Positions 2,632-25,080 of a stretch of DNA of 32,000 nucleotides are shown here, piece after piece (positions within the stretch are counted from its first letter, which is position 1; the number at the start of each line of letters is the position of its first letter). A model generated the notes under the pieces. The model saw nothing but the letters and a program-made list of their open reading frames with translations. It ran no database searches and was not told the DNA's origin. The position numbers and the translations under genes are program-made. The stretch is from Trichodesmium erythraeum IMS101 (GTDB taxonomy: Bacteria > Cyanobacteriota > Cyanobacteriia > Cyanobacteriales > Microcoleaceae): assembly GCF_000014265.1 (NCBI RefSeq), contig NC_008312.1:900001-932000 (forward strand), written 5' to 3'.

Positions 2632-2715
2632 ATGAAACCTAATAGCTCAAAACTCTGCACCATAACAGCTCTGAGTTTAATACTAGGCACATTAGCCACC
2701 ACTCCCGCTAACTCC
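2632..2715 (+). other. Sec-type signal peptide of copy B
   Basis: MKPNSSKLCTITALSLILGTLATTPANS|QP: basic N-region, hydrophobic core, small residues before the predicted cleavage site. Confidence 0.7.
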
Positions 2716-5700
2716 CAGCCCATAACCCCGGCTAAGGACGGTACCAATACTACTGTTACTCCACAGGGCCAACAATTTCATATTAAAGGTGGGACTCGCA
2801 GTGGTACTAATGTATTTCACAGCTTTGATAAGTTTAATGTGCACTCTGGTCAAACTGCCAACTTTGTCACGACCCCGGATACTCGCAACGTTCTCGGACG
2901 AGTTAAGGGAGGCGCTTCTTATATTAATGGTCTTATTCAGGTTCTAGGTAGCAGCTCTAACCTCTTCTTAATGAACCCCGCAGGCATAATGTTTGGCCCA
3001 AACGCCAGCCTCAATGTACCTGCGTCATTCAGTGTTACTACTGCTACTGGTATTGGTTTTGACCAGAATAATTTCTGGTTCAAGGCTATGGGCACTAATG
3101 ACTATTCAAATTTGCTCGGAAGCCCTAGTGGTTATAGGTTTGATGTTTCTAAACCTGGTTCTATTGTTAATGAAGGAAGTTTAACTTTAAATTCTGGAGA
3201 AAATTTAACTTTATTAGGGGGAACTGTTGTTAATACAGGGGAACTCTCTAGCCCTGGGGGTAATATTACTGTCACTGCTGTCGAAGGTGGTAGTACCCTG
3301 AAAATATCTCAACCAGGACATTTGTTAAGTTTAGAGGTACCCCTAGAGGATGGAGAAAATATTTCTAATATTGATCCTCTATCTTTACCAGAGTTATTAG
3401 CTGGTGGAGGAGATATCGTTGAGGCTACATCTGTTATTGTTAAAGAGAATGGTGATGTGGTTTTGACCGGTTCAAATACTATGGTGGCTGAGACTCCGGG
3501 AACGGCAACTATTTCGGGAAAGATAGATGTATCAACTACTGCTAGTTCTCTCCAAAATGAGGGGGGTGCTAGTTTTGGAGGCCAAGTTAATGTGTGGGGC
3601 GATCGCGTGGCTCTTATAGATACAAATATCAAGGCTGATGGCAAAAATGGGGGTGGAACTGTATTAATAGGAGGAGATTTTCAAGGGTTGGGTATAGTTC
3701 CTAATTCTCAGCATACTTTTGTTAATAATAATTCATTTATTTCTGCGGATGCTATCACAAATGGTGATGGAGGTCAAGTTAGAATTTGGTCGGATGGTAT
3801 TACTAATTTTGCGGGAAATATTAGTGCTAAAGGCGGCACATCTTCGGGAAATGGAGGGTTGGTTAAAATTGGGGGAAAAGAACAATTAATCTTTGATGGA
3901 AAGGTGGATGTTACTGCGGCTTTAGGGACTGAAGGTACGATTTTATTGGACCCAGAAAGTGTGACGGTGGGAGAGGATAATTCGGAAGGTGAAAAAGAAA
4001 TTGTAGATGATAATTCCGAGGTTTCTGAGACAGAAAATACTGATAATTATAATGGGGAAATTGTAGATGATAATTCGGAGGTTTCTGAGACAGAAAATAC
4101 TGATAATTTCAAAGACAAAAAACCAGACACTCCTAAAGACAAAAAACCAGACACTCCTCTTGATCCTTTTGCTGCTGATGAGAATTCTGATGTGACTATT
4201 TCGGCGGATAATTTAGGGGAATTATCGGGGAATGTGATTATTGATGCTGATAATGATATTACCATAAATGAAAGGATAGAAACTGATTCTTCTGTGGAGT
4301 TAAAGGCTGGTCGAAGTATTAATATAAATGCGGATATTGATACTAAGAGTGGAAATGGGAATATTGATTTATTGGGTAATAATGATGAGATGAATTTGGC
4401 GAACCGTTCTGATGGGAAAGGTTCAATAAATCAATTGGATGGAACAATTTTAAATGCTGGAAGTGGTGGAATTAATATTAAGTTGGGAAGTTTAGGGGAG
4501 GTAGGTGATATAAATCTGGGAAATTTAAGGACGACAGGGAAGGTTTTGGTTGATGCGAATGGGGGAAATATTGTTAGAGTTTCTGAGAATTCTTTGATAA
4601 ATGCGGGGAGTGTTTTGTTTAGAACTTCTGGGAATGGAGGTATAGGTTTTCTTGGTCAACCTTTGCGGTTAGATGTGCAGAATTTGGAGGCGGTTTCTGG
4701 TAGTGGTGGGGTGTTTTTTGATGTGGGAAATGTGAATATTGGTGGTGTGAGTGAGGATGTGGTTGGTATTGCTACTTTTGGAGGAGATGTTGATATTAAG
4801 AGTGCGGGAAATGTGACTTTAAATGAAACTATTTCTAGTAATGAGGTTGTGGAGAATAATTCTGAGGGGGGAACTACGGAAAATACGGAGGTTGTTGATG
4901 GAGGTGGTGGGATAAACATTGAAGCGGCGGGAGATATTGTGGCTACGGGTAGTGGTATTAAAGGTGGTGGGGAAGCTGTTTCTTTGTCTGGGACTAATAT
5001 TAGGATAAATGATGAATTTGATGAGACTTCTGGGGATGCGGATGTTAAGTTGTCGGCCACAAATGATATTGTTGTTGAGGATATAGAGGATGATGTGTTG
5101 GAGTTTATGCCTGGGAGTGGGGAGATAGAATTTCGTGCGGATAAAGATGGGGATGGGTTTGGTCTTGTGAAGATGTTGGATAATAAGCCGGATGTTGGGA
5201 GTAACCCTGATATTTTTGAGAATGGGGCGGATACTATTAAGACTAATGGGCGAGGTTTGACTATTGCTGGTGCTGGTCTGGTTTTGGGGAATGTTGATAC
5301 TTCTTGGTTGCCTATTTATTCTGGTGGTGGGGAGTTGTTGAAGGCGATCGATGTGGATAAGGGGGGGGCGATACCTCCGGAAGGTACAGAAGGTACTGCA
5401 ACATTTACTTTTACTGTAGATGGTGACTTGGGAACTGTAGAAAATATAGATGTTCGCTTTTCTGCGGCACATACTTGGGATGAGGACTTAGACGTTAGTC
5501 TGGAATCACCCCAAGGGAAGGTAGTACAATTGTTTTCACGCGTTGGTGGTAGTGGAGAGAACTTTCAGGATACTGTGTTGGATGATGATGCTTCTAGAAG
5601 AATTATCAGTGGCAATGCTCCGTTTGATGGTACATATCGTCCCCAAGGAAGTTTAGCAGATTTTAATGGAGAAAATCCTAATGGAGCTTGGACTTTGAAG

Positions 5701-8700
5701 GTGACTGATACCTATCCCTGGGCAGATGATGGCACTTTATACAGAGCTGGTGAGACTGCTCCCTGGGGAACTGCCATAGGTACACAACTGTTGCTACGTA
5801 ATCCTCTTGTTAAGAGTGGTGGAGGAATAGGAAGTGGAAATGGTGGAGCGATCAACCTAGAAGCAACTCATGGTGATATTAGTGTAGGAAATATTCGTAG
5901 TTTGAGCGAAACTGCTAATGGGGGAAGAATTGACCTGAATGCTAATAAGGATATTATTTCTGGTCTGATTAATTCTAGTTCTGTGCAAGGAAATGGAGGA
6001 GCCATTGATTTGGATGCTGGTGGCGATATCACTACACAATACCTCAATTCCTGGTCCTCTTCCTGGGAAAAAGGCAACTCAGGAAATGGAGGAGCCATTG
6101 ATTTGGATGCTGGTGGCGATATCACTACACCATACCTCAATTCCGGGTCCTCTTCCAGCTCAGGTAACTCAGGAAATGGAGGAGCCATTGATTTGGATGC
6201 TGGTGGCGATATCACTACACAATACCTCAATTCCTGGTCCTCTTCCAGCTCAGGCAACTCAGGAAATGGAGGAGCCATTGATTTGGATGCTGGTGGCGAT
6301 ATCACTACACAATACCTCAATTCCGGGTCCTATTCCGGCTCAGGCAACTCAGGAAATGGAGGAGCCATTGATTTGGATGCTGGTGGCGATATCACTACAC
6401 AAGACCTCGATTCCGGGTCCGATTCCTGGGAAGGCAAGTCAGGAAATGGAGGAGCCATTGATTTGGTAGCTGGTGGCGATATCACTACACAAAACCTCGA
6501 TTCCAGGTCCGATTCCAGCTCAGGCAACTCAGGAAATGGAGGAGCCATTGATTTGGATGCTGGTGGCGATATCACTACACAATACCTCTATTCCGGGTCC
6601 TCTTCCTGGGAAAAAGGCAACTCAGGAAATGGAGGAGCCATTGATTTGGATGCTGGTGGCGATATCACTACACAATACCTCTATTCCGGGTCCATTTCCT
6701 GGTCAGGCAACTCAGGAAATGGAGGAGCCATTGATTTGGTAGCTGGTGGCGATATCACTACACAATACCTCTATTCCGGGTCCTATTCCTGGTCAGGCAA
6801 CTCAGGAAATGGAGGAGACATAACACTGAATGCAAAGACAATAAAATTCAACTCTCCACAACACGCAAATGGAGAAAAAATAAAAATCCATACATTTTCA
6901 GTAGGAAAAAAAGAATCTGAGGAAGGAAAAGGTGGAGACGTTAACATTACCACCAACAACCTCAGCAACACAGATATATTAACACTATCCTCCCACTCTG
7001 AATCAGGAAAAGTAACAATAGAAAGTAAGACACAAGAACCACTTCAAATCAAAGACTCATCCATTATCACTAGTGAACAAGTAACAGTAGAAATCTTCGA
7101 GGAACAAATACAAATAGAAACAGGAAATACCCAATCAGGCGACGTCTTCATCAACAGTGACGGCGACCTCAACCTAAACAACGTCACCATAGAAAGCGAC
7201 ACCAAAAGTAACCAAGCCGCCGGAGACGTCAACATCTACAGCCGCGGCAACATCACACTCGAAAACACCGACATCATCAGCACCACCAACTCCCAAGGCA
7301 ACGCCGGCCAAATCACCTTAGAAACCAACGAAAACATAGAACTCACCAACAACAGCAAAATCCTAGCCAACACAGAAGGAACCGGAAACGCAGGTCAAAT
7401 AAACATAGAAGCCAACAACCTCATCCTAGACCAAAACACCAAACTCATCACAGAAACCGCAAGAGCTGGAAACCCCGGAAACATAAAAATCCAAGCCAAC
7501 ACCATAGACATAGGAGAAGGCGCTAAAGCCAGCACCACAGTCTTAACAGGTTCAACCAGCACCGGAGAAGGAGGCAACATCACCATCAACACAAACAAAC
7601 TCAACGTCACAGGAAAACTGGGAATATTTGCCGAAACCGAAGCCAGCAAAAACGCCGGTACCCTTCGCATCTCACCCTACAAAAACAACCCCAACCTAGA
7701 CATAACCTTCAAAAACGACGGCTTCATCTCCGCCTCCACCTCATCCACAGGCAACGGAGGCAACATATTCATCAAAGCCCCAGAAAACATCAACATAACA
7801 GGCCAAGGGTTCATTGCCACCAAAACATCAGGCACAGGTAACGCCGGAATTATCGACATCAAAACCAACAACCTGAGAATATCCAATGGAGTCAAAATCA
7901 ATGCTTCCACAGAAGACCAAGGCAACGCCGGCGAAATCAAAATCAACACCACAGACTTCACCCTAGAAAAAGGAACAAGTCTAACAACAGAAACCAGCAG
8001 CGCCGGACTAGCCGGAAACATAGAAATAAACACCAAAAACCTCACAATAGGACAAAACGCCCAAATAAGTGCCACAGCACTAGAAGGAGCCAGCAACAAA
8101 GAAGCAGGCGGCAACATCACCATCAACGCCAATAACCTAGACATATCAGGAAAACTAGGAATATTCGCGGAAACCGCAGGAGAAAGCCCCGCAGGCACCC
8201 TCACCCTGAACCCATATAAAAACAACCCCAACCTAAATATAGAATTCAAACAACAAGGCTTCATTTCTGCTCGCACCAGCTCCAGTGGCAACGGAGGCAA
8301 CATAAATATTCAAGCACCAGAAAAAATCAACATTACAGGAGACGGAAAAATATCAGCCGAAACCACAGGGAGTGGAAATGCAGGCACCATCAATATCCAA
8401 ACAGAAAACCTCAACCTATCAGAGCAAGTAGCCATAAGTGCCGAAACCAACAGTCAAGGTCAAGCCGGAAACATTGAAATTAACTCCCAAACAGTTACCA
8501 TAGGAAAAGGCACAGAAATAAGTGCAACAGCCGGAAAAAAAGCAACAAGCACCGGAGATGGAGGCAACATCACCATCAACACCAACGACCTAGAAATCTC
8601 AGGAAAACTAGGAATATTCGCCGAAACCAAAGGAGCATCAAACGCCGGAACCTTAACCATCACCCCTTACCAAACCAACCCAGACCTCAATAGCAAAACC

Positions 8701-11700
8701 GACCCAAACATCAATATTACCTTCACCGACCAAGGCTTCATTTCTGCTAGCACCAAATCTCTGGGAAAGGGAGGCGACATCAATATATTGGCACCAGAAA
8801 ACATAAATATTACAGGAGATGGTCGGATAACAGTTGAAAGCGAAGGTAGTGGAGATGCAGGCATTATTAACATTGAAACAGAAAACCTGACAATAGCCGA
8901 AAACACAAAAATATCAGCATCCACATCCGACAGCGGAAACGGAGGCGAAATCAAAATTAACTCTAGCGAAACATTCCAACTACAAGGCCGAATATTAACA
9001 GAAACCACAGGAACAGGAGATGGAGGCATTATCAATATTGAAGCAGGAGAAATAACTGCGCCTAACAGCAAGATATCAGCTAAAACTACCGACGCCGGCA
9101 ACGCAGGTACAATAGATATTACTGCCCAAGGAGATATTACCACAGGAGTTGTTACCTCCGCCGCCAAAAATAAAAGAGAAACTGCTGACGGAGGTAGCAT
9201 TAGTATTACCAGTGAACAAGGAAAAATTAACGCCACCCGAGCAATTCAATCATTTTCAGAAGGAGGCAACGCCGGAAATGTTACCCTCAAAGCCCAAACA
9301 GACATAACCGCCAATACCATAAGTTCTCACGGAAAGCAAGAGGGTGGTCAAATAACCATCAGATCAGAAACCGGAAATATTGACACCAGTAGTGGTAAAT
9401 TCTTAGCCAACTATTCAGGAGGCGGTGACGCGGGAGACATTACAATGGAAGCACCCCAAGGAAATATTACCACAAATAATATCTATTCCTACGCCGACGG
9501 AGACGGAGGTCAAATAAACATTAAAGCCGGAAACAATATTAATATAGAAGCAAACAGTAATATTATTTCTGCATCAGAGCCACCAAGTGAGGGAAACAGT
9601 GACAAACAAGGAAAAGGAGGAGATATTACTCTAGAAGCAGGCAACAATATTAATACTACAGCAGCTAATATATATTCTGGTGCCAACGAGGGCGACACAG
9701 GACAAATTGATATTACTGCAGATAACGCAATAGAAACAGGTAAAATAGACTTAGCATCAGGTTTTGTCAGACAAGAAACAAAAGTAAACCAAAACCTGGT
9801 CCTCATCCCTAAACCAGGAGAACCAGCCACCAAAGGAAAAGCTGGAGACATCAGACTCCGCAGCAGAAACAGTACAATAGACACCACCGGTGGCACAATA
9901 AATTCTCGTTCCCCAGACGGCACCGGAGATATTATTATCAATGCCAAAGGAAATATTAGCACAGGGAAATTAGAAGCCAGCGCCCTTAACCCAGACAACC
10001 CTACCACAGGTGGAGACGTTAATATTACCAGCGAGCAAGGAGAAATTAATGCAACTCAAAACATAGAAACCTTCTCAGAAAAAGGTACAGCAGGAGATGT
10101 AAATATTACTGCAGCGGGTCATATCAATACAAACACCATTCGTTCAGATGGAATGGAACAGGGAGGAGATATTAATATTAGGAGCGATAGTGAAAGTAGC
10201 ATAGATGCAGCAGGAGCATTACAAACATATTCAGATGCAGGAACAGCAGGAAACGTCAACCTCACATCCCCAGGGAATGTTAATATTAGCGGCATTCGTT
10301 CAGAAGGAATGGAGCAGGGAGGTGATATTACACTGAAGAGTCAAGGAGGAGAAATTAACTCTACAGGCGATATAGACTCCTATTCAAAACAAGGAAAAGG
10401 AGGATACGTCAAAGTAGATGCCCCAGAAAGAGTAAATTTAGCAAATGTATCATCCTACGGCATGACAGAAAGTGGTGACTTAATTACTCAGAGCCAACAA
10501 GCAGAAGTTAATACAGGAAATGTCACAACACAAGCTTCAGAGGGAAAGAGTGGACGTATAGTCATCAACGGAACAGAAGTAGGTACGGGAAATTTAAGTT
10601 CTATCGCAGGAACAAGCGCCGGGGAAATTAATGTAGAAGCAACAGATGGTTCTATTGCCACCTATGATATAGAAATGACATCAGGTGGTACACTAGGAGC
10701 TTTAACACTGAGAGCACCAGAAAATATTAACACAGGAGACATTCGTCAAAAAGCAGGAGAGGGAGATGCGAATGCAAATATATTTTCAGGAGGAAACCAA
10801 ACCACAGGAAATATTAGTCAAGAAGCAGGCAATAATACTAACCTAAATCAAAATGCAGGAGAGAATATAAATGCAGGGAATATCGAACAAAATGCTGGTA
10901 ATAATACTAACCTAAATCAAACTGCAGGAGAGAATATAAATGCAGGGAATATCGAACAAAATGCTGGTAATAATACTAACCTAAATCAAACTGCAGGAGA
11001 GAATATAAATGTAGGGAATATCGAACAAAATGCGGGTAATAATACTAACCTAAATCAAACTGCAGGAGAGAATATAAATACAGGGGATATCGAACAAAAT
11101 GCGGGTAATAATACTAACCTAAATCAAACTGCAGGAGAGAATATAAATACAGGGGATATCGAACAAAATGCGGGTAATAATACTAACCTAAATCAAACTG
11201 CAGGAGAGAATATAAATACAGGGGATATCGAACAAAATGCTAGTAATAATACTAGTATTTATCAAATTGCAGAAGGAGAGATTAATACACCAGTCATTAA
11301 TCAAACTTTCGGTAATGAGACTACGCTCAATCAAATATCAGTAAGAGATGTTAATACACCAGTAATTTCTAATAACAATATACCTAATAATCAAGGACTT
11401 AATCAAGAAAATTTCTCTAATAATAACAATAACAATATTGAGAATAATTCCACTACAAATTCCTCAAACAATAAAAACATTTCATCAACCCTTACCCAGT
11501 CTCAAAGGTCTGAATTAATTTCAACTTCTACCCCCAGCAACAATAACCAAACAACTAATACAAATACAGCCCAAGAACAAACAGAATCATCTATTAATAG
11601 TACAACGGATACCCAAAAAATCTTAAACATAATTGATACCGTCAATACCAATTCCTTGACAGTTGCGACTGGTTCAGACCAAGTAATAACAATGTTAGAA

Positions 11701-12891
11701 CAAAACCTTACTAACGAATATTCTAATTACTTTGGAACAGATTTTAAGGAACAATTTATTAACCAAAAAACACCCCGAGAAATCTTAACCGATATGGCTG
11801 CTAAAACAGGAAAAGAATCTGCAGTTGTTTATATTAATGCTTATCCAGAGGAATTACAAATAATTTTATATACCAAAGATGGTCAACCTATTCTTAAAAC
11901 TATCCCGGAAGCTAACCGTAAAAAATTAGAGAAAGTAGTTATAAATTTCCTCAAATTAACGACAAGTCCTGCCTATCGTGATTTTAATAGTTATCTATCA
12001 CCAGCAAAACAATTATATGATTGGTTCATTGCACCTATATCAGCAGAATTAGAAGCAGCAAATATCGATACCTTATTGTTCAGTATGGGTGAAGGTTTAC
12101 GTATTTTACCAGTGGCAGCATTACATGATGGAAAGCAATTTTTAATTGAGAAATATAGCCTAAGTTTAATTCCGAGTATCAGCTTAATGGATACAAATTA
12201 TCGCCCACTTCAAGGTACTCAAGTATTAGCTATGGGAGCTAGTAAATTTATCAATGAAAAACCTTTACCAGCAGTACCTGTGGAGATAGAAACAATTTCT
12301 GAACAGTTATGGGAAGGTAGTAAATTTTTAAACGAAGAATTTACCAAGAATAATTTGTTAACTCAAAGAAAAAATTATCCCTATCCTATTATTCACTTAG
12401 CTACCCATGCAACATTTAATAGAGGAAAACCTAGTAATTCTTACATTCAGCTATGGGGTAATGAACAAATAAAGTTAGACCAAGTGCGGGAGTTGGGTTG
12501 GAGTACCCCATCGGTTGACTTGTTGGTATTGTCTGCTTGTCGCACTGCTGTAGGAAATAGAGAAGCGGAATTAGGGTTTGCAGGGTTAGCAGTAGCAGCG
12601 GGAGTGAAGTCAGCCTTAACGAGCCTTTGGACTGTAAGTGATGAAGGGACATTGGCATTAATGACAGAGTTTTATACTCATTTGAATGATGCTAAGATCA
12701 AGTCAGAGGCATTAAGACAGGCGCAGTTAGCAATGCTGCAAGGGCAGGTGCTTATTACAGGTGGGGAGTTGAGGGGAAGCAGCACTCGTGGTGGGGTGGA
12801 GCTACCTTCGGCGTTCGCAAATGTAAACAATCAAAATTTATCTCATCCTTATTACTGGGCAGGGTTTACTATAGTTGGTAGTCCTTGGTAA
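2632..12891 (+). CDS. Giant secreted TPS-domain / beta-helix / P-domain / CHAT-protease protein, array copy B (3419 aa from ATG 2632; an in-frame TTG at 2629 gives the 3420-aa ORF in the track)
   Basis: Uninterrupted 10.26-kb ORF in AT-rich DNA. Signal peptide, TPS motifs, P-domain and CHAT motifs are all recognisable (see sub-features). Confidence 0.95.
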   Translation: MKPNSSKLCTITALSLILGTLATTPANSQPITPAKDGTNTTVTPQGQQFHIKGGTRSGTNVFHSFDKFNVHSGQTANFVTTPDTRNVLGRVKGGASYINGLIQVLGSSSNLFLMNPAGIMFGPNASLNVPASFSVTTATGIGFDQNNFWFKAMGTNDYSNLLGSPSGYRFDVSKPGSIVNEGSLTLNSGENLTLLGGTVVNTGELSSPGGNITVTAVEGGSTLKISQPGHLLSLEVPLEDGENISNIDPLSLPELLAGGGDIVEATSVIVKENGDVVLTGSNTMVAETPGTATISGKIDVSTTASSLQNEGGASFGGQVNVWGDRVALIDTNIKADGKNGGGTVLIGGDFQGLGIVPNSQHTFVNNNSFISADAITNGDGGQVRIWSDGITNFAGNISAKGGTSSGNGGLVKIGGKEQLIFDGKVDVTAALGTEGTILLDPESVTVGEDNSEGEKEIVDDNSEVSETENTDNYNGEIVDDNSEVSETENTDNFKDKKPDTPKDKKPDTPLDPFAADENSDVTISADNLGELSGNVIIDADNDITINERIETDSSVELKAGRSININADIDTKSGNGNIDLLGNNDEMNLANRSDGKGSINQLDGTILNAGSGGINIKLGSLGEVGDINLGNLRTTGKVLVDANGGNIVRVSENSLINAGSVLFRTSGNGGIGFLGQPLRLDVQNLEAVSGSGGVFFDVGNVNIGGVSEDVVGIATFGGDVDIKSAGNVTLNETISSNEVVENNSEGGTTENTEVVDGGGGINIEAAGDIVATGSGIKGGGEAVSLSGTNIRINDEFDETSGDADVKLSATNDIVVEDIEDDVLEFMPGSGEIEFRADKDGDGFGLVKMLDNKPDVGSNPDIFENGADTIKTNGRGLTIAGAGLVLGNVDTSWLPIYSGGGELLKAIDVDKGGAIPPEGTEGTATFTFTVDGDLGTVENIDVRFSAAHTWDEDLDVSLESPQGKVVQLFSRVGGSGENFQDTVLDDDASRRIISGNAPFDGTYRPQGSLADFNGENPNGAWTLKVTDTYPWADDGTLYRAGETAPWGTAIGTQLLLRNPLVKSGGGIGSGNGGAINLEATHGDISVGNIRSLSETANGGRIDLNANKDIISGLINSSSVQGNGGAIDLDAGGDITTQYLNSWSSSWEKGNSGNGGAIDLDAGGDITTPYLNSGSSSSSGNSGNGGAIDLDAGGDITTQYLNSWSSSSSGNSGNGGAIDLDAGGDITTQYLNSGSYSGSGNSGNGGAIDLDAGGDITTQDLDSGSDSWEGKSGNGGAIDLVAGGDITTQNLDSRSDSSSGNSGNGGAIDLDAGGDITTQYLYSGSSSWEKGNSGNGGAIDLDAGGDITTQYLYSGSISWSGNSGNGGAIDLVAGGDITTQYLYSGSYSWSGNSGNGGDITLNAKTIKFNSPQHANGEKIKIHTFSVGKKESEEGKGGDVNITTNNLSNTDILTLSSHSESGKVTIESKTQEPLQIKDSSIITSEQVTVEIFEEQIQIETGNTQSGDVFINSDGDLNLNNVTIESDTKSNQAAGDVNIYSRGNITLENTDIISTTNSQGNAGQITLETNENIELTNNSKILANTEGTGNAGQINIEANNLILDQNTKLITETARAGNPGNIKIQANTIDIGEGAKASTTVLTGSTSTGEGGNITINTNKLNVTGKLGIFAETEASKNAGTLRISPYKNNPNLDITFKNDGFISASTSSTGNGGNIFIKAPENINITGQGFIATKTSGTGNAGIIDIKTNNLRISNGVKINASTEDQGNAGEIKINTTDFTLEKGTSLTTETSSAGLAGNIEINTKNLTIGQNAQISATALEGASNKEAGGNITINANNLDISGKLGIFAETAGESPAGTLTLNPYKNNPNLNIEFKQQGFISARTSSSGNGGNINIQAPEKINITGDGKISAETTGSGNAGTINIQTENLNLSEQVAISAETNSQGQAGNIEINSQTVTIGKGTEISATAGKKATSTGDGGNITINTNDLEISGKLGIFAETKGASNAGTLTITPYQTNPDLNSKTDPNINITFTDQGFISASTKSLGKGGDINILAPENINITGDGRITVESEGSGDAGIINIETENLTIAENTKISASTSDSGNGGEIKINSSETFQLQGRILTETTGTGDGGIINIEAGEITAPNSKISAKTTDAGNAGTIDITAQGDITTGVVTSAAKNKRETADGGSISITSEQGKINATRAIQSFSEGGNAGNVTLKAQTDITANTISSHGKQEGGQITIRSETGNIDTSSGKFLANYSGGGDAGDITMEAPQGNITTNNIYSYADGDGGQINIKAGNNINIEANSNIISASEPPSEGNSDKQGKGGDITLEAGNNINTTAANIYSGANEGDTGQIDITADNAIETGKIDLASGFVRQETKVNQNLVLIPKPGEPATKGKAGDIRLRSRNSTIDTTGGTINSRSPDGTGDIIINAKGNISTGKLEASALNPDNPTTGGDVNITSEQGEINATQNIETFSEKGTAGDVNITAAGHINTNTIRSDGMEQGGDINIRSDSESSIDAAGALQTYSDAGTAGNVNLTSPGNVNISGIRSEGMEQGGDITLKSQGGEINSTGDIDSYSKQGKGGYVKVDAPERVNLANVSSYGMTESGDLITQSQQAEVNTGNVTTQASEGKSGRIVINGTEVGTGNLSSIAGTSAGEINVEATDGSIATYDIEMTSGGTLGALTLRAPENINTGDIRQKAGEGDANANIFSGGNQTTGNISQEAGNNTNLNQNAGENINAGNIEQNAGNNTNLNQTAGENINAGNIEQNAGNNTNLNQTAGENINVGNIEQNAGNNTNLNQTAGENINTGDIEQNAGNNTNLNQTAGENINTGDIEQNAGNNTNLNQTAGENINTGDIEQNASNNTSIYQIAEGEINTPVINQTFGNETTLNQISVRDVNTPVISNNNIPNNQGLNQENFSNNNNNNIENNSTTNSSNNKNISSTLTQSQRSELISTSTPSNNNQTTNTNTAQEQTESSINSTTDTQKILNIIDTVNTNSLTVATGSDQVITMLEQNLTNEYSNYFGTDFKEQFINQKTPREILTDMAAKTGKESAVVYINAYPEELQIILYTKDGQPILKTIPEANRKKLEKVVINFLKLTTSPAYRDFNSYLSPAKQLYDWFIAPISAELEAANIDTLLFSMGEGLRILPVAALHDGKQFLIEKYSLSLIPSISLMDTNYRPLQGTQVLAMGASKFINEKPLPAVPVEIETISEQLWEGSKFLNEEFTKNNLLTQRKNYPYPIIHLATHATFNRGKPSNSYIQLWGNEQIKLDQVRELGWSTPSVDLLVLSACRTAVGNREAELGFAGLAVAAGVKSALTSLWTVSDEGTLALMTEFYTHLNDAKIKSEALRQAQLAMLQGQVLITGGELRGSSTRGGVELPSAFANVNNQNLSHPYYWAGFTIVGSPW
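2719..3348 (+). other. TPS / haemagglutination-activity domain (Pfam Haemagg_act type) of copy B
   Basis: GTNVFHSFDKFNVHSGQTANF...NVLGRVKGGASYINGLIQV..SNLFLMNPAGIMFGPNASLNVPASFSVTT. These are the canonical TpsA motifs, including the NPNGI-like NPAGI. Confidence 0.85.
3997..4158 (+). repeat. Acidic 60-nt coding repeat (EIVDDNSEVSETENTDNYNG) x2, followed by a 24-nt repeat (KDKKPDTP) x2
   Basis: Units start at 3997 and 4057. aaagacaaaaaaccagacactcct occurs at 4111 and 4135. Confidence 0.85.
5392..5800 (+). other. Proprotein-convertase P-domain (Pfam P_proprotein type) embedded mid-protein, copy B
   Basis: GTATFTFTVDGDLGTVENIDVRFSAAHTWDEDLDVSLESPQGKVVQLFSRVGGSGENFQDTVLDDDA...FDGTYRPQGSLADFNGENPNGAWTLKVTDT..DDGTL. 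This is the classic P-domain signature (H.w.gDL.v.L.SP.Gt...L......g.nf..t.fdD.A......F.G.y.P...L..F.G....G.W.L.v.D....d.G.L). Confidence 0.8.
5989..6810 (+). repeat. 90/93-nt (30/31-aa) tandem coding repeat, 9 full units plus a terminal degenerate unit: GNGGAIDLDAGGDITTQ + variable Ser/Tyr/Trp-rich loop
   Basis: ggaaatggaggagccattgat recurs at 5989, 6082, 6172, 6262, 6352, 6442, 6532, 6625, 6715 and 6805 (the last is GNGGDITL). Confidence 0.95.
7570..9050 (+). repeat. Three tandem ~150-180-aa macro-modules, themselves built of ~20-aa GNAG-x-I-x-I rungs
   Basis: GGNITIN(T/A)N.L..(S/T)GKLGIFAET....AGTL...PY..NP.L.I.F...GFISA.T.S.G.GG.I.I.APE.INITG.G recurs with module starts at 7570, 8107 and 8560. 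Confidence 0.8.
10825..11300 (+). repeat. 69-nt (23-aa) Asn/Gln-rich tandem coding repeat, 6 units plus 1 degenerate unit
   Basis: Unit starts at 10825, 10894, 10963, 11032, 11101, 11170 and a degenerate one at 11239. Consensus AGNNTNLNQTAGENINxGxIEQN. Confidence 0.95.
11365..11655 (+). other. Asn/Ser/Thr/Gln-rich low-complexity linker between the stalk and the CHAT domain
   Basis: NNNIPNNQGLNQENFSNNNNNNIENNSTTNSSNNKNISSTLTQSQRSELISTSTPSNNNQTTNTNTAQEQTESSINSTTDTQ. Few hydrophobic residues and no repeat period. Confidence 0.7.
11800..12888 (+). other. CHAT (caspase-like) protease domain, copy B
   Basis: LRILPVAALHDG..FLIEKYSLSLIPS...PIIHLATHATF (His codon 12406-12408) ...VDLLVLSACRTAVG (Cys codon 12538-12540) ...SALTSLWTVSDEGT..LM..FY......K.EALRQAQLAML....SHPYYWAGFTIVG. 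Confidence 0.85.
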
Positions 12892-13146
12892 TAAAAATGA
12901 CCAACTAACATTCAACATCTTCAAATGTAGTCAACTTATTCGTAATTTTTGGGTTCAGATCATGTGGATGTGTAATTAATTTTGTACGACGGCTTCTTTA
13001 GCAAACCCTAAATATTAATTGATAGAGGGAGGGATTTTTTGATCACATTTGTTATGTGTTGTCAATTATCGACAAAATCTCAAAATATTTGTGTCAACGA
13101 CAATATATCATTTAAACGTTGAAGCGTCAATAGTAGGAATAGCACT

Positions 13147-13401
13147 GATAATATTGACACTCTCAGTAGCGGTAGTAGTTTCACGGGTTTTGTTGAAATA
13201 ACAGATACCAACAACTATTATCGCTTTTATCTAAGTGGGGAAAGGGAGTTTGAGCTTACTCTCAAGGACTTAAGCGGTTATGCATACGTATAATTACTCA
13301 GCAGCACTGGTGCTACTATCATTAGTTCTACCAAGACTGGTAGAAGTTCTGAGAGCATCAGTAAAACTTTTAATTCGGTTACATATCATAACCTTGGATG
13401 A
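13147..13401 (+). pseudogene. Second copy of the PPC-like domain relic (spacer of unit 2)
   Basis: Same sequence as 2206-2460 shifted by 10941. Confidence 0.55.
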
Positions 13402-13477
13402 AAAAGATACTAAATGGTTTCTATACAACAATTTCAAGACCCATAATTAAAATGACAAATAAATTTTAAATAATTTC

Positions 13478-13506
13478 TTGATTTTTGTATGGTAAGGATT
13501 TATAAT
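13478..13506 (+). promoter_or_regulatory. Candidate sigma70-type promoter for giant gene C
   Basis: Same TTGATT-17-TATAAT element as 2537-2565, shifted by 10941. Confidence 0.3.
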
Positions 13507-13572
13507 AATACCTATAAATTAAATAAAAGTCAATATAATTTTCAACAAATACCATAATAACAAAAACCTTTG

Positions 13573-16500
13573 ATGAAACCTAATAGCTCAAAACTCTGCA
13601 CCATAACAGCTCTGAGTTTAATACTAGGCACATTAGCCACCACTCCCGCTAACTCCCAGCCCATAACCCCGGCTAAGGACGGTACCAATACTACTGTTAC
13701 TCCACAGGGCCAACAATTTCATATTAAAGGTGGGACTCGCAGTGGTACTAATGTATTTCACAGCTTTGATAAGTTTAATGTGCACTCTGGTCAAACTGCC
13801 AACTTTGTCACGACCCCGGATACTCGCAACGTTCTCGGACGAGTTAAGGGAGGCGCTTCTTATATTAATGGTCTTATTCAGGTTCTAGGTAGCAGCTCTA
13901 ACCTCTTCTTAATGAACCCCGCAGGCATAATGTTTGGCCCAAACGCCAGCCTCAATGTACCTGCGTCATTCAGTGTTACTACTGCTACTGGTATTGGTTT
14001 TGACCAGAATAATTTCTGGTTCAAGGCTATGGGCACTAATGACTATTCAAATTTGGTCGGAAACCCTAGTGGTTATAGGTTTGATGTTTCTAAGCCTGGT
14101 TCTATTGTTAATGAAGGGAATTTAACTTTAAAACCCCAAGGAAATTTAACTTTGTCGGGTGGAACTGTTGTTAATACAGGGGAACTCTCTAGCCCTGGGG
14201 GTAATATTACTGTCACTGCTGTCGAAGGTGGTAGTACCCTGAAAATATCTCAACCAGGACATTTGTTAAGTTTAGAAGTACCCCTAGAGGATGGAGAAAA
14301 TATTTCTAATATTGATCCTCTATCTTTACCAGAGTTATTAGCTGGTGGAGGAGATATCGTTGAGGCTACATCTGTCGTTGTTAAAGAGAATGGTGATGTG
14401 GTTTTGAATGGTTCAAATACTATGGTGGCTGAGACTCCGGGAACGGCAACTATTTCGGGAAAGATAGATGTATCAACTACTGCTACTTCTCTTAAGGAGA
14501 AGGGGCGTGTTCCTAGTCAGAGAAAGAAGGAGGGTGCTGCTAGTCCAGGAAAGATAGATGTTCCTCCTTCCCTCAAGGAGAAGAGAGATGTTGCTAAGGC
14601 CGGTAAAGTTAATGTGTGGGGCGATCGCGTGGCTCTTATAGATACAAATATCAAGGCTGATGGCAAAAATGGGGGTGGAACTGTATTAATAGGAGGAGAT
14701 TTTCAAGGGTTGGGTATAGTTCCTAATTCTCAGCATACTTTTGTTAATAATAATTCATTTATTTCTGCGGATGCTATCACAAATGGTGATGGAGGTCAAG
14801 TTAGAATTTGGTCGGATGGTATTACTAATTTTGCGGGAAATATTAGTGCTAAAGGCGGCACATCTTCGGGAAATGGAGGGTTGGTTAAAATTGGGGGAAA
14901 AGAACAATTAATCTTTGATGGAAAGGTGGATGTTACTGCGGCTTTAGGAACTAAAGGTAGGATTTTATTAGACCCAGAAAGTGTGACGGTGGGAGAGGAT
15001 AATTCGGAAGGTGAAAAGGAAATTGTCGAGGATAATTCGGAGGTTTCTGAGACAGAAAATACTGATAATTATGATGGGGAAATTATTGAGGATAATTCCG
15101 AGGTTTCTGAGACAGAAAATACTGATAATTATAATGGGGAAATTGTCGAGGATAATTCCGAGGTTTCTGAGACCGAAAATACTGATAATTCCACAACAAA
15201 AAATACTGATAATTTAGAAGATAAAGAAACAGAAAATCCTCTTGATCCTTTTGCTGCTGATGAGAATTCTGATGTGACTATTTCGGCGGATAATTTAGGG
15301 GAATTATCGGGGAATGTGATTATTGATGCTGATAATGATATTACCATAAATGAAAGGATAGAAACTGATTCTTCTGTGGAGTTAAAGGCTGGTCGAAGTA
15401 TTAATATAAATGCGGATATTGATACTAAGAGTGGAAATGGGAATATTGATTTATTGGGTAATAATGATGAGATGAATTTGGCGAACCGTTCTGATGGGAA
15501 AGGTTCAATAAATCAATTGGATGGAACAATTTTAAATGCTGGAAGTGGTGGAATTAATATTAAGTTGGGAAGTTTAGGGGAGGTAGGTGATATAAATCTG
15601 GGAAATTTAAGGACGACAGGGAAGGTTTTGGTTGATGCGAATGGGGGAAATATTGTTAGAGTTTCTGAGAATTCTTTGATAAATGCGGGGAGTGTTTTGT
15701 TTAGAACTTCTGGGAATGGAGGTATAGGTTTTCTTGGTCAACCTTTGCGGTTAGATGTGCAGAATTTGGAGGCGGTTTCTGGTAGTGGTGGGGTGTTTTT
15801 TGATGTGGGAAATGTGAATATTGGTGGTGTGAGTGAGGATGTGGTTGGTATTGCTACTTTTGGAGGAGATGTTGATATTAAGAGTGCGGGAAATGTGACT
15901 TTAAATGAAACTATTTCTAGTAATGAGGTTGTGGAGAATAATTCTGAGGGGGGAACTACGGAAAATACGGAGGTTGTTGATGGAGGTGGTGGGATAAACA
16001 TTGAAGCGGCGGGAGATATTGTGGCTACGGGTAGTGGTATTAAAGGTGGTGGGGAAGCTGTTTCTTTGTCTGGGACTAATATTAGGATAAATGATGAATT
16101 TGATGAGACTTCTGGGGATGCGGATGTTAAGTTGTCGGCCACAAATGATATTGTTGTTGAGGATATAGAGGATGATGTGTTGGAGTTTATGCCTGGGAGT
16201 GGGGAGATAGAATTTCGTGCGGATAAAGATGGGGATGGGTTTGGTCTTGTGAAGATGTTGGATAATAAGCCGGATGTTGGGAGTAACCCTGATATTTTTG
16301 AGAATGGGGCGGATACTATTAAGACTAATGGGCGAGGTTTGACTATTGCTGGTGCTGGTCTGGTTTTGGGGAATGTTGATACTTCTTGGTTGCCTATTTA
16401 TTCTGGTGGTGGGGAGTTGTTGAAGGCGATCGATGTGGATGAGGGGGGGCCAATACCTCCGGAAGGTACAGAAGGTACTACAACATTTACTTTTACTGTA

Positions 16501-19500
16501 GATGGTGACTTGGGAACTGTAGAAAATATAGACGTTCGCTTTTCTGCGGCATATACTCACACTGGGGACTTAGACGTTAGTCTGGAATCACCCCAAGGGA
16601 AGGTAGTACAATTGTTTGCAGGTGTTGGTCGTTGGGGAGATAACTTTCAGGATACTGTGTTAGATGATAATGCTTCTAGAAGTATTGGCATAAGCAATGC
16701 TCCGTTTGATGGTAGATATAGTCCCCAAGGAAGTTTAGTAGATTTTAATGGAGAAAATCCTAAGGGAATTTGGACTTTGAAGGTAAAGGATACCAATATA
16801 TTTTCAAATTTGGCTGATGGTAATTTATACAGAGCTGGTGAGACTGCTCCCTGGGGAACTGCCATAGGTACACAACTGTTGCTGCATAACCCTCTTGTTA
16901 AGATTGCTGGAGGAATAGAAAGTGGAAAAGGTGGAGCGATCAACCTAGAAGCAACTCATGGTGATATTAGTGTGGGAAATATTCGTAGTTTGAGCGAAGC
17001 TGCTAATGGGGGAAGAATTGACCTGAATGCTAATAAGGATATTATTACTGGTCTGATTAATTCTAGTTCTGCTTCTGTGCAAGGAAATGGAGGAGCAATT
17101 GATTTGGATGCTGGTGGCAATATCACTACACAATCCCTCAATTCTAGGTCCTATTCCTGGGAAGGCAACTCAGGAAATGGAGGAACCATTGATTTGGATG
17201 CTGGAGGCAATATCACTACACAATCTCTCTATTCCAGCTCCTATTCCGGGTCTGGCAACTCAGGAGATGGAGGAGCAATTGATTTGGATGCTGGTGGTGA
17301 TATCACTACTACACAAGACCTTGATTCCAGCTCCTATTCCTGGGAAAGCAACTTAGGAAATGGAGGAGCAATTGATTTGGATGCTGGTGGCAATATCACT
17401 ACACAAGTCCTTGATTCCAGATCCTTTTCCTGGGAAGGCAACTCAGGAAATGGAGGAGCAATTGATTTGGATGCTGGTGGCAATATCACTACACAAATCC
17501 TTGATTCCTGTTCCTATTCCGGGTCTTACGACTCAGGAAATGGAGGAGCAATTGATTTGGTAGCTGGCGGCGATATCACTACACAAAACCTCTATTCCGA
17601 TTCCTTTTCCAGGTCTGGCAACTCAGGAAATGGAGGAGCAATTGATTTAGTAGCTGGTGGCGATATCACTATACAAGACCTCTATTCCTTCTCCTATTCA
17701 GGATCTGGCAACTCAGGAAATGGAGGAGACATAACACTGAATGCAAAACAAATTAACCCTCCAGAAGACGGAAATGCAGAAAAACTAACAATCTATACAT
17801 TTTCAGCAGGAAAAAAAGAATCTGAGGAAGGAAAAGGTGGAGACGTTAACATTACCACCAACAATCTCAGCAACACAGACATATTAACACTATCCTCCCA
17901 CTCTGGATCAGGGAAAGTAACAATAGAAAGTCAGACACAAGAACCACTTCAAATAAAAGACTCATCCATTATTACTAGTGAAAAAATAACAATAACAATG
18001 CCTTGGGGTGAAGAAATACAAGTTGAAACAGGAGATACCCAATCAGGGGACGTCTCCATTAACAGTTCCGGCGACCTCAACCTCAGCAACGTCACCATAG
18101 AAAGCGACACCGAAAGTAACCAAGCCGCCGGAGACGTCAACATCTACAGCCGCGGCAACATCACACTCGAAAACACCGACATCATCAGCACCACCAACTC
18201 CCAAGGCAACGCCGGCCAAATCACCTTAGAAAGCAACCAAAACATAGAACTCACCAACAACAGCAAAATCCTAGCCAACACAGAAGGAACCGGAAACGCA
18301 GGTCAAATAAACATAGAAGCCAACAAACTCATCCTAGACCAAAACACCAAACTAATCACAGAAACCGCAAGAGCTGGAAACCCCGGAAACATAAACATCC
18401 AAGCCAACACCATAGACATAGGAGAAGGCGCTAAAGCCAGCACCACAGTCTTAACAGGTTCAACCAGCACCGGAGAAGGAGGCAACATCACCATCAACAC
18501 AAACGAACTCAACGTCACAGGAAAACTCGGAATATTTGCCGAAACCGAAGCGAGCAAAAACGCCGGTATCCTTCGCATCTCACCCTACAAAAACAACCCC
18601 GACCTAGACATCACCTTCAAAAACGAGGGCTTCATCTCCGCCTCCACCTCATCCACAGGCAACGGAGGCAACATATTCATCAAAGCCCCAGAAAACATCA
18701 ACATAACAGGCCAAGGGTTCATTGCCACCAAAACATCAGGCACAGGTAACGCCGGAATTATCGACATCAAAACCAACAACCTGAGAATATCCAATGGAGT
18801 CAAAATCAATGCTTCCACAGAAGACCAAGGCAACGCCGGCGAAATCAAAATCAACACCACAGACTTCACCCTAGAAAAAGGAACAAGTCTAACAACAGAA
18901 ACCAGCAGCGCCGGACTAGCCGGAAACATAGAAATAAACACCAAAAACCTCACAATAGGACAAAACGCCCAAATAAGTGCCACAGCACTAGAAGGAGCCA
19001 GCAACAAAGAAGCAGGAGGCAACATCACCATCAACGCCAATAACCTAGACATATCAGGAAAACTAGGAATATTCGCGGAAACCGCAGGAGAAAGCCCTGC
19101 AGGCACCCTCACCCTGAACCCATATAAAAACAACCCCAACCTAAATATAGAATTCAAAGAAAAAGGCTTCATTTCTGCTCGCACCACCTCCAGTGGCAAC
19201 GGAGGCAACATAAATATTCAAGCACCAGAAAAAATCAACATTACAGGAGACGGAAAAATATCAGCCGAAACCACAGGGAGTGGAAATGCAGGCACCATCA
19301 ATATCCAAACAGAAAACCTCAACCTATCAGAGCAAGTAGCCATAAGTGCCGAAACCAACAGTCAAGGTCAAGCCGGAAACATTGAAATTAACTCCCAAAC
19401 AGTTACCATAGGAAAAGGCACAGAAATAAGTGCAACAGCCGGAAAAAAAGCAACAAGCACCGGAGATGGAGGCAACATCACCATCAACACCAACGACCTA

Positions 19501-23676: not shown

Positions 23677-23967
23677 TAAAAATGGCCAACTAATATTCAA
23701 CATCACCAACAATGTCGACCCCGACGAGGATGGCAATAAGGCCTTTACTATTGATGGCGATCGCCTCCTAGTTAACGACAGTGACGACCTAAATTATGAA
23801 ACTAACCCCATTCTCAATATTACCATTGAAGCTAGTGATAGGGAATTGACTGATGCAGCTTTATGTCTGGACTAGCAATTCTGAGGGTGTGGAAATCTGG
23901 GGATGCTCTGTTACCTCTGGAACAGGAATTTAATATTGACCTGAATGGAGACGATATAATTTTCTAG
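23660..23967 (+). pseudogene. Frameshifted relics of the 3' end of a cadherin-repeat-type exoprotein gene
   Basis: Frame 2 (23660-23875) reads ...GNKNGQLIFNITNNVDPDEDGNKAFTIDGDRLLVNDSDDLNYETNPILNITIEASD..., which is cadherin-repeat-like (F.I....L.V...LDYE....L.I.A.D). Frame 1 (23857-23967) reads SFMSGLAILRVWKSGDALLPLEQEFNIDLNGDDIIF*, resembling the Trp-rich ...DLNGDG.IG C-terminal modules of large cyanobacterial exoproteins. It overlaps the stop of gene C and has no credible start. Confidence 0.5.
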
Positions 23968-24129
23968 TACTCATTCCTATGCACATAGGTTAGGCGATTA
24001 AAAAATTATAATGCACAAAAGGGGGTAATATCATCTCCAGATAATCAGTGATCAAAAAGTATATGGTTTGTAGTAGGGCAAGGGCCTTATCTGCACTTAG
24101 GGCTTTGACCTTATTACAAACTTTAATTA

Positions 24130-25080
24130 TATAGTTATTTTAAATAAGAATGAGACACTATTTGGCACAATAATTACGAATAATTTCATCAATAGATGTA
24201 TTGATAGGTGAATACATTCTAGCTTTTTTTAATGCATTAAAATCATGTTCTTAGTCATTTAAATCAGGAGAGTTTTTTGACAAAAATAGTAATTGATGAC
24301 CCCCTGCTTCTACTAATTCTCTAATAACCTTTTTTCGTTAGAATTGGTTAATTCTCCATAATTAGTAAACTGAGAATTTTTAATAATGGCAAGAAATGTT
24401 TATCTAACCATTGTTCAAATACCACGGTATTTAGGGTTCCTTTAAATATAATTGGTGCTATTGAATTTTTTTCCTTTTTTATTCTCCCAGCTACTAAATT
24501 TTCTCTTTTACCTCGTTTTCCCTCTTACTCAGCATCAACTTTTTTCCCTTTTTTTGACCAGGCATAAATATAGTATTGATTATCTTCAAATCTTGATTCA
24601 TCAATAAATATAAGGCTTTTGCCTCAAAATTTTTTGATGAAATCTCGTAGTTTATGAATAATATTTTATCCTTTATTCTCTATTTATTTCCCTATAACGA
24701 AGTTGTTTTTTTTAAGGAAAATTCATTTTTTTCAAAGCATAAAATATAGCTGTAGGATTAACTCCAATTTTTTTATCTCTGTCTACCAATTTAAACTCTG
24801 GATTTAGTTTGATATCTTTTTCTAATTCTTTCTAATCTAATTTTATTCGACGAAATTTTACCTTATTTGCTTCCAATTTTGGGCGAGATCACTATCTATA
24901 TATCGAAGTTATTCCTATCCCAAATACATGAGCTGCTTCGGTAATAGTACCACCATTTTCTACAAAATTTATGACTTTTTGTCTGAAGTCTAAATTGTAA
25001 GGCATGGTTAAAAATAGTTTCTACTTTACTTAAAATTATTATACTCAATTTTTGTCTCAATTTTAATTAAAACAACTATA
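24130..25080 (-). mobile_element. Decayed IS630 (Tc1/mariner-like) family insertion sequence with recognisable terminal inverted repeats
   Basis: The left end tatagttattttaaataagaatgagac (24130-24156) matches the reverse complement of the right end gtctcaattttaattaaaacaactata (25054-25080) at 23 of 27 positions. Both ends carry TA. The interior encodes a broken IS630-type transposase. Confidence 0.8.
24158..25005 (-). pseudogene. IS630-family transposase pseudogene (multiple stops and frameshifts)
   Basis: The minus strand from ATG 25005 reads MPYNLDFRQKVINFVENGGTITEAAHVFGIGITSIYR** (HTH region, with stops replacing the usual W-L). Later frames give IFIDESRFEDNQYYIYAWSKKGKKV..*..RENLVAG...IAPIIFKGTLNTVVFEQWLDKHFLPLLK..SLLIMEN* and ...IDEIIRNYCAK*. 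DDE context: IDES present, IMDN changed to IMEN. Confidence 0.85.

Follow-up and report, generated by a model that had tools for sequence, protein, structure and literature searches.

What does a caspase-fold protease do at the very end of a giant protein that is built for export by two-partner secretion (TPS)? The question is raised by a 32,000-nt stretch of the genome of Trichodesmium erythraeum IMS101 (assembly GCF_000014265.1, contig NC_008312.1, positions 900,001-932,000, forward strand; hereafter the window, in whose own numbering all positions are given unless another contig is named). The open reading frames (ORFs) of the window include three copies of a giant gene, arranged head-to-tail on the + strand in the order C, A, B. 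Gene A (2632-12891, + strand) is complete and encodes, from an ATG codon, a TpsA-type exoprotein of 3419 aa that ends in a CHAT module; an alternative start, TTG, lies at 2629. A first-pass annotation of this DNA had proposed that such a protein either delivers a caspase-like protease into neighbouring cells on contact or carries a self-processing prodomain that matures or releases a giant adhesin.

Two-partner secretion has been worked out almost wholly in proteobacterial pathogens, and what is known of bacterial CHAT proteases comes mainly from heterocyst development and from defence by CRISPR and CBASS. A 2017 review of two-partner secretion leaves cyanobacteria unmentioned (PMC5422565). 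Haemagglutinin-domain exoproteins are common to Beggiatoa and filamentous cyanobacteria, including Trichodesmium, in a study that makes no mention of CHAT (Mussmann et al., 2007), and a Trichodesmium pangenome preprint refers in passing to proteins with "CHAT domains" and with a "haemagglutination activity domain". The view of the first-pass annotation that the architecture is annotated yet uncharacterized agrees with our full-text searches of open-access papers and bioRxiv, in which no study of TPS-CHAT proteins or of a CHAT-TpsB linkage was found. The domain combination is already visible in public annotation, and the mechanism proposed below is one that we infer; what is new is that a type Vb secretion system has a caspase-fold protease, either built into the passenger or encoded in the same operon.

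The C-terminal module is a predicted caspase-fold protease

The last ~405 residues of protein A (aa 3015-3419; 11674-12888, + strand) form the CHAT module, which is longer than the ~350 aa first allotted to it. The PF12770 profile matches aa 3124-3417 over 287 of its 289 positions (E 1.8e-69, 234.8 bits against a cut-off of 24), and the corresponding modules of gene C (733-1947, + strand; PF12770 E 3.7e-71) and gene B (22459-23673, + strand) have the same catalytic dyad. The CAT codon of the His in the ATHATF motif is found at nt 1465, 12406 and 23191, and the TGT codon of the Cys in the LSACRT motif at nt 1597, 12538 and 23323, one of each per copy, so that all six positions reported for the dyad in the first-pass annotation were exact. 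In protein A the two residues are His3259 (nt 12406-12408) and Cys3303 (nt 12538-12540). Both are invariant in 44 of 44 homologues and in all members of a wider set of 153 sequences, made up of 150 representatives of 50%-identity clusters, the module of the window and two gammaproteobacterial proteins in which CHAT follows tetratricopeptide repeats (TPR-CHAT).

The last 429 aa of protein A were modelled with AlphaFold (AF2) from the alignment of 44 homologues. The model has a mean pLDDT of 90 and a pTM of 0.91, with disorder limited to the first ~24 residues, and places His3259 and Cys3303 near the C-terminal ends of strands 263-272 and 307-315. In a Foldseek search of the PDB, the top match was Csx29/TPR-CHAT of type III-E CRISPR systems (E 8e-15, TM-score 0.60, query-normalised), followed by separases (E 8e-9 to ~1e-8, TM-score 0.46-0.52, query-normalised), the SAVED-CHAT filament and the anti-sigma factor DdvA, and, more weakly, by gingipain R (E ~1e-3) and caspase-11. 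A search of PDB sequences with the 44-sequence CHAT profile returned only a spurious low-complexity match; as far as the model goes, the kinship of the module to Csx29 and separase is visible by fold only. The structural comparison suggested earlier for this C-terminus thus bears out the assignment at the level of fold (Csx29, separase) and of motif only. From profile, model and motifs together, the module is predicted to be a catalytically competent caspase-fold protease with an intact dyad.

Protein A ends in GSPW (last four codons, 12877-12888). None of these four residues varies in the 44-sequence alignment, and across the 153 relatives conservation reaches at least 95% for G, P and W. The last residue is different in the two TPR-CHAT proteins from Gammaproteobacteria, one of which ends in ...IGNWL. 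The conserved terminal aromatic residue could serve in recognition by a PDZ domain or by a protease that processes C-termini, or its role could simply be structural.

Protein A has the N-terminus of a TPS passenger

At the other end of the protein, a Sec-type signal peptide, MKPNSSKLCTITALSLILGTLATTPANSQ (2632-2718, + strand), was read from the translation, where a positive n-region, a hydrophobic core and an A-x-S/Q site are recognized by eye. It is followed by a TPS secretion domain (aa 36-247; 2737-3372, + strand) with NVFHSFDKFNV and NPAGIMFG motifs (aa 60 for NVFHSFDKFNV, aa 110 for NLFLMNPAGIMFGP). In scans restricted to the first 350 aa, the domain matched PF05860 (E 2.4e-38, 132.9 bits against a cut-off of 33.5) and TIGR01901 (adhes_NPXG; E 1.8e-21, 75.8 bits against a cut-off of 29.1). 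Among PDB sequences it matched the solved TPS domains of EtpA (E 4.7e-8) and of the HMW1 adhesin (2odl; E 3.2e-5). The signal peptide and TPS motifs had been called correctly, and at exact positions, in the first-pass annotation. Pfam and NCBIfam scans of the whole 3419 aa did not report the TPS domain. Because a domain worth 133 bits is missed at full length, automated under-calling is possible: with HMMER filters acting on long, biased sequences, annotation pipelines may report too few TPS domains for proteins of this size. A 2.9-kb contig (WTIT01000132.1) filed under a "Methanobacteriota archaeon" metagenome-assembled genome (MAG) also encodes a TPS domain, which shares 81% identity with that of the window; this contig is almost certainly mis-binned Trichodesmium-like DNA.

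Between the two ends lies a stalk of ~2,900 residues made of Gly/Thr/Asn-rich repeats. It contains a beta-sandwich resembling the P-domain of proprotein convertases (aa 936-1036; 5437-5739, + strand), for which the expected match to PF01483 was obtained (P_proprotein, E 1.5e-9, 38.3 bits against a cut-off of 21), as was that of the C-terminus to PF12770. Tandem Repeats Finder detected nine tandem 90-nt (30-aa) repeats, GNSGNGGAIDLDAGGDITTQYLNS..., at 5988-6821 (+ strand; period 90, 9.2 copies, 91% matches) and, towards the end of the stalk, tandem 69-nt (23-aa) Asn-rich repeats at 10831-11348 (+ strand; period 69, 6.1 copies, 97% matches). An Asn-rich linker had been noted between stalk and CHAT module; it is present, and at ~114 aa (aa 2901-3014; 11332-11673, + strand; N 25%, T 17%, S 15%) it is a low-complexity Asn/Thr/Ser-rich segment longer than the ~95 aa first given. 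Its last ~24 residues (aa 2991-3014), the sole part included in the model, have a pLDDT below 50 and are predicted to be disordered. The mature protein A (3,390 residues) has a single Cys, the catalytic Cys3303, the other Cys of the translation being located in the signal peptide; copy B has one additional Cys, at aa 1313. A single catalytic Cys in the mature chain is as expected for a protein that crosses the periplasm unfolded.

The paralogues differ in the stalk and agree at both ends

Gene B (13573-23676, + strand; 3367 aa; alternative start at 13570) is a paralogue of identical architecture. By blastn, A and B are 93-98.7% identical, with one segment replaced, and segment-wise comparison of amino acid identity and of the ratio of non-synonymous to synonymous substitution (dN/dS) describes the pair as a mosaic. 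Over aa 561-900 (nt 4312-5331, 1,020 nt) the two are identical even at synonymous sites, whereas dS in the flanks is 0.08-0.15. The segment with the P-domain (aa 901-1060) has 81% amino acid identity and a dN/dS of 1.16, and is the fastest-evolving of the aligned segments; the block of 30-aa repeats differs in copy number; and aa 2701-2910 are only 32% identical, the Asn-rich cassette of A being opposed to an unrelated Asp/Gly-rich repeat in B, a swap marked in the blastn alignment by a gap between 10740-11360 of A and 21648-22145 of B. By comparison, dN/dS is 0.38 at the TPS end and 0.18 at the CHAT end, the latter, with 98.7% amino acid identity, being the most conserved among the segments with any differences.

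These ratios point to purifying selection on both CHAT and TPS. In the alignment, variation is placed in the stalk and both ends are held constant, which is the reverse of a polymorphic-toxin locus. The P-domain and the paralogue-specific repeat cassettes of the stalk probably bind ligands. Because the dyad is invariant in 153 of 153 sequences and the dN/dS of CHAT contrasts with that of the P-domain and with the swapped cassette, the sequence comparisons argue that the protease is under selection for activity.

CHAT is linked to TPS proteins in other genomes

An exhaustive HMMER search of 1.84 billion cluster representatives with the module yielded 4,984 matches at E ≤ 1e-30, of which the best 150 were analysed. 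The closest database proteins to the C-terminal module are from T. erythraeum (94-97% identity), followed by Okeania, Dapis and Hydrocoleum. Among the best 150, the module is at the extreme C-terminus in every case, in proteins of 439-3,633 aa (median 1,368), and a locally built TPS profile finds an N-terminal TPS domain in 94 of these nearest 50%-identity cluster representatives (700-3,600 aa). Most of the remaining representatives begin within repeats like those of the stalk, as if their gene calls were truncated. ORFs that run without interruption from TPS to CHAT, with lengths of 742, 1,332, 2,866, 2,944, 3,401 and at least 3,690 aa, were found in five genomes (Dapis, Okeania, Chamaesiphon and others). 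Judged by these sequences, TPS...CHAT is the main architecture of this CHAT clade.

Some relatives lack the passenger altogether. Two stand-alone homologues of 470 aa, P0116 and P0085, are 52-55% identical to the module and have a Sec signal peptide and nothing else besides CHAT, which implies a periplasmic enzyme; P0116 is without a TPS neighbour. In other genomes the protease is encoded beside the secretion machinery. TpsB genes, of a family widespread among filamentous cyanobacteria, adjoin TPS-CHAT genes at four loci (L003, L019, L020 and L022), and one short TPS-linker-CHAT protein (P0079, 746 aa) is encoded next to a TpsB (POTRA_2 and ShlB), a DUF928 gene and a transglutaminase-core gene. 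Six gammaproteobacterial loci (Pseudomonadales, OM182, Azotimanducaceae), reached through TPS domains picked solely for their similarity to that of the window, carry genes for a TPR-CHAT protein (~730 aa), then TpsB, then TpsA (~1,500-2,000 aa where complete), and a Cylindrospermum locus has a TPR-CHAT gene with a signal peptide followed by TpsB. Taken together, TpsA is directly 3' of TpsB in six of the seven TPR-CHAT/TpsB loci, and all seven separately encoded TPR-CHAT proteins start with a signal peptide. TPR repeats are found in the separately encoded versions of CHAT, whereas the fused versions are without them, as expected if the partner or substrate that such repeats would bind is TpsA itself. 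The occurrence of CHAT fused to TpsA in some lineages and beside TpsB/TpsA in others is a classic signature of functional partnership.

Three further features of these loci were recorded. The transglutaminase-core (563-564 aa, divergent strand), DUF928 (263-288 aa) and TpsB genes form a cyanobacterial trio (L003 9794-15481, L038 6712-12121, L039 6765-12052) that occurs with or without a TpsA near it, and that recurs in Microcoleus and Phormidium with no TpsA near. In a Pseudomonadales MAG (L031 9818-14926), TpsB is followed by TpsA-TPR-CHAT in one frame with two stops (13484 and 14642), which is either a fusion in decay, a halfway state between fused and split genes, or an effect of errors in sequencing. 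Finally, the gammaproteobacterial TpsA proteins share a C-terminal tail with two Cys residues, ...ISASS.RGIDGTV.IESPNQ...NNC...RSYL.V.N.NPVRRDP..(Y/F)LP...GC-stop (L028 ~14790-15148, L032 ~15545-15904, L033 ~14380-14740). By analogy, this tail resembles the disulfide-bonded periplasmic anchor of HMW1/HxuA, and it could be a recognition or cleavage site of the adjoining CHAT protease.

A periplasmic retention and processing protease is the favoured reading

What the analysis shows directly is which domains the proteins contain, which fold the module has, that its dyad is invariant among the relatives, how conservation is distributed, and that CHAT genes of other genomes are linked to TpsB/TpsA. 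As to function, we tentatively favour, at somewhat less than even confidence, the view that CHAT acts on the periplasmic side as a protease for retention and processing, through which the fibre is matured or released. As in other type Vb passengers, the Sec signal peptide would carry the protein into the periplasm and the TPS domain would engage an Omp85-type TpsB pore, encoded outside the window; the ~2,900-residue stalk would be threaded out N-to-C and would fold as a surface fibre. Because TPS export runs N-to-C, the C-terminus would leave last. The last 405 residues would fold into the CHAT cysteine protease, joined to the stalk by a disordered linker which, with ~114 residues, would be long enough to span the TpsB pore, and CHAT may remain in the periplasm, where, as a folded plug, it would keep the fibre from leaving its transporter. 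From there it would cut the passenger, either its own chain or sister copies, leading to maturation or release; one domain would then do the work both of the FhaB prodomain or HMW1/HxuA anchor and of the distinct proteases by which those systems process their passengers. We infer the periplasmic location of the fused module, the passenger as its substrate and the function in release.

There are precedents for each end of this scheme. TPS passengers cross the TpsB pore with the N-terminus first, and it is by a small globular domain at the C-terminus, kept in the periplasm, that HMW1 and HxuA remain attached (PMC5422565). In FhaB, according to one account (PMC4542190) and to Noel 2012 as cited in PMC5422565, a large C-terminal prodomain stays intracellular and is then removed. 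Three observations made here fit the same picture, namely the restriction of TPR to unfused forms, the Sec-only stand-alone homologues and the single catalytic Cys. Of the two models first put forward, the self-processing or retained C-terminal domain is thus the one favoured, and this on comparative evidence: the Sec-only homologues, the TpsB linkage and the HMW1, HxuA and FhaB precedents.

Several results weigh against this reading. No TpsB (Omp85/ShlB-type) gene is present in the 32-kb window or within 10 kb of the related Dapis and Okeania arrays, and no Trichodesmium protein was among the best 120 matches of a search for TpsB homologues. Upstream of the CHAT module, the 44-sequence consensus shows no conserved motif that would be a candidate for cleavage. 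The Sec signal peptide of the stand-alone homologues is compatible with further export, and in the stalk-less TPS-linker-CHAT proteins P0079 and P0067 (692 aa) there is nothing obvious to release; these two look more like a "TPS domain plus protease cargo".

The latter proteins give the best support to the possibility, which we consider rather unlikely, that CHAT is itself the exported cargo: TPS would show or release a caspase-fold endopeptidase on a long stalk, which would act in trans outside the cell, for instance on the colony matrix, on other proteins of the surface or on those of associated organisms, and would enter no target cell. The minimal forms of 692-746 aa, encoded next to TpsB and DUF928, have the look of an export domain plus an enzyme, the dyad is invariant and the long flexible linker could act as a leash; TPS-secreted enzymes and toxins are moreover an established category (PMC5422565). 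Against this, the close stand-alone and operon-encoded TPR-CHAT proteins have a Sec signal and no TPS domain, so that the same enzyme works there without TPS export, and a folded 405-aa domain at the C-terminus would be the last and hardest part to export. The fold relatives separase, Csx29 and SAVED-CHAT are tightly regulated single-substrate proteases and not general exoproteases. Membership of the clan CD fold, with gingipain-type matches at E ~1e-3, also brings to mind a sortase-like transpeptidase that would cleave the passenger and attach the fibre covalently to an envelope component, since clan CD includes transpeptidases such as PorU of type IX secretion and GPI8. The operon-linked gammaproteobacterial TpsA tail ending in ...GC could then be a recognition signal. 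We nevertheless hold this to be very improbable: the closest structural relatives, Csx29 and separase, are hydrolases, and the window proteins are without a conserved tail resembling a sorting signal, CHAT itself being the C-terminus.

In a scheme akin to contact-dependent inhibition (CDI), the stalk would bind a receptor on a neighbour and CHAT would be translocated as a toxin or signal. TPS, giant stalk and enzymatic C-terminus share the CdiA layout, and the variable middle of the protein, with its fast-evolving P-domain and swapped cassette, resembles variable receptor-binding regions. No ORF of at least 60 aa is present, however, in the 678-nt gaps between copies or after any of the three CHAT ends, and hence no candidate for an immunity gene; the largest spacer ORF, of 56 aa, has no Pfam match. 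Pfam finds no pretoxin domain in protein A, nor is there a VENN module. Since no gene follows the CHAT end and no pretoxin motif is present, a CDI-type toxin is unlikely. The only VENN string, at aa 740 of 3419, is mid-stalk and was dismissed as a chance match. The C-terminal module is moreover the most conserved part, between the paralogues and family-wide, instead of being polymorphic, and CHAT homologues with a Sec signal exist as plain periplasmic proteins. Zhang et al. 2012 (PMC3482391) predict C-terminal caspase-like toxins in other secretion contexts, but their catalogue of caspase-like toxin and releasing domains lists Tox-Caspase for type II, VI and VII secretion systems (T2SS, T6SS, T7SS) and for PVC, not for type V (T5SS). 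The CdiA-like delivery of a protease proposed in the first-pass annotation is therefore disfavoured, and we regard it as improbable; an equally low probability is given to the variant in which, in the absence of a classical immunity gene, the fibre hands a caspase-fold protease by contact to neighbours (kin filaments, epibionts or grazers). Least credible of all is an array that is decaying, or that is an assembly artefact of repetitive DNA, without current function. The perfect repeat of at least 2,059 nt with its regular period (see below), metagenome contigs that break within the gene, and transposase and exoprotein-gene remnants just 3' of the array speak for it; two complete, stop-free ORFs of 3,419 and 3,367 codons, purifying selection on CHAT and TPS, and intact orthologous ORFs in four other genera speak against it.

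Organization and borders of the array

Gene C (1-1950, + strand) is the 3' part of a further upstream copy, the rest of which is cut off by the start of the window, and is 100% identical to 10942-12891 of gene A. Identity between copies C and A is 100% by blastn across all of the comparable 2,059 nt (1-2059 versus 10942-13000). The spacer between A and B (12892-13572; 681 nt) is repeated at 100% identity at 1951-2631, and the identity continues into the following gene (1951-2700 versus 12892-13641, blastn). The tandem period of the array is 10,941 nt. Because these perfect repeats occur together with a 1,020-nt difference-free tract of A and B amid diverged flanks, the pattern points to a very recent duplication or to ongoing gene conversion, possibly to smoothing of repeats in the assembly. 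Scans of the window or spacer for Rfam families, tRNAs and terminators gave nothing relevant.

On the 3' side of the array are housekeeping genes, coding for a DUF1517 protein, a Rieske/KshA-type oxygenase, HisRS, HisG and a pentapeptide-repeat protein, and copies of this downstream flank, 99.6-99.7% identical, are present in metagenome assemblies of the European Nucleotide Archive (ENA). Gene remnants were noticed just 3' of copy B (23660-25080): a 71-aa ORF with a weak match to a Cadherin domain (E 0.003, below the cut-off), a possible W_rich_C fragment, and a 37-aa fragment of the helix-turn-helix of an IS630-type transposase on the - strand (E 4e-11). In one metagenome contig (L040), synteny with the window stops at ~24630 at an inverted copy of this ~440-nt element, which makes the border of the array a point of rearrangement between strains.

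Discussion

The proteins of the window share features with several known systems and match none of them. FhaB/FhaC of Bordetella is similar in its Sec signal, TPS domain, giant stalk and large C-terminal domain, which, according to PMC4542190 and to Noel 2012 as cited in PMC5422565, lies outside the mature fibre, on the cell side, and is proteolytically removed. The FhaB prodomain, however, is no protease, whereas here the C-terminal domain is itself one of predicted caspase fold, and no sequence similarity between FhaB and the window proteins was found beyond the TPS domain. FhaB is processed in trans by the separate proteases SphB1, CtpA and DegP. HMW1/HMW1B and HxuA/HxuB of Haemophilus are alike in their related TPS domain (that of HMW1 matching at 2odl) and in the concept of a globular periplasmic C-terminal domain that locks the passenger in the TpsB pore; their plug is a non-enzymatic, disulfide-bonded loop of 20-66 residues, in contrast to what would here be a 405-aa protease with one Cys and no disulfide. 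CdiA/CdiB also has TPS and a giant stalk and places an enzymatic domain last in the chain; our proteins differ from it in having no pretoxin/VENN boundary, no immunity gene and no C-terminal polymorphism, the stalk varying instead.

Relations by fold or by analogy lead further afield. Csx29 (of Craspase, type III-E CRISPR) and separase share the CHAT fold, as predicted with Foldseek, but at a sequence identity of 8-16%; they work in the cytoplasm or nucleus, where RNA-guided complexes or the loss of securin activate them, whereas the module described here is predicted to be extracytoplasmic and is fused to a secretion substrate. In Pseudomonas, a folded periplasmic domain keeps the giant repeat adhesin LapA in an outer-membrane pore until LapG, a periplasmic cysteine protease, sets it free. 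This is a functional analogy to the proposed retention and release only, LapA/LapG being a non-homologous system with type I secretion, an N-terminal retention module and a separately encoded, transglutaminase-like protease. Built-in caspase-fold cysteine proteases that autoprocess a giant secreted protein are found in the cysteine protease domain (CPD) of MARTX and large clostridial toxins and among the "releasing" peptidases of Zhang et al. 2012 (PMC3482391); these are internal, upstream of effector or toxin domains, belong to other families and are unreported for T5SS, whereas the protease is terminal here.

The family to which these genes belong is a large, cross-phylum one, with at least 94 clusters at 50% identity in which TpsA ends in a predicted, active-looking caspase-fold protease. 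If the protease governs the retention or release of the fibre, it would represent a built-in maturation mechanism undescribed for type V secretion and would give bacterial CHAT proteases a clear extracytoplasmic job. In an alternative, less dramatic version, CHAT and TpsB would together form a regulated switch by which surface fibres are released, and this switch would be conserved between Cyanobacteria and Gammaproteobacteria. If the protease were delivered to neighbours, it would be a secreted "executioner" or signalling protease, and could tie in with the caspase-like activities reported in the death of Trichodesmium colonies. For Trichodesmium itself, multi-copy and fast-diversifying surface fibres are candidates for a part in filament-filament cohesion and colony formation, processes of importance for nitrogen fixation in the ocean.

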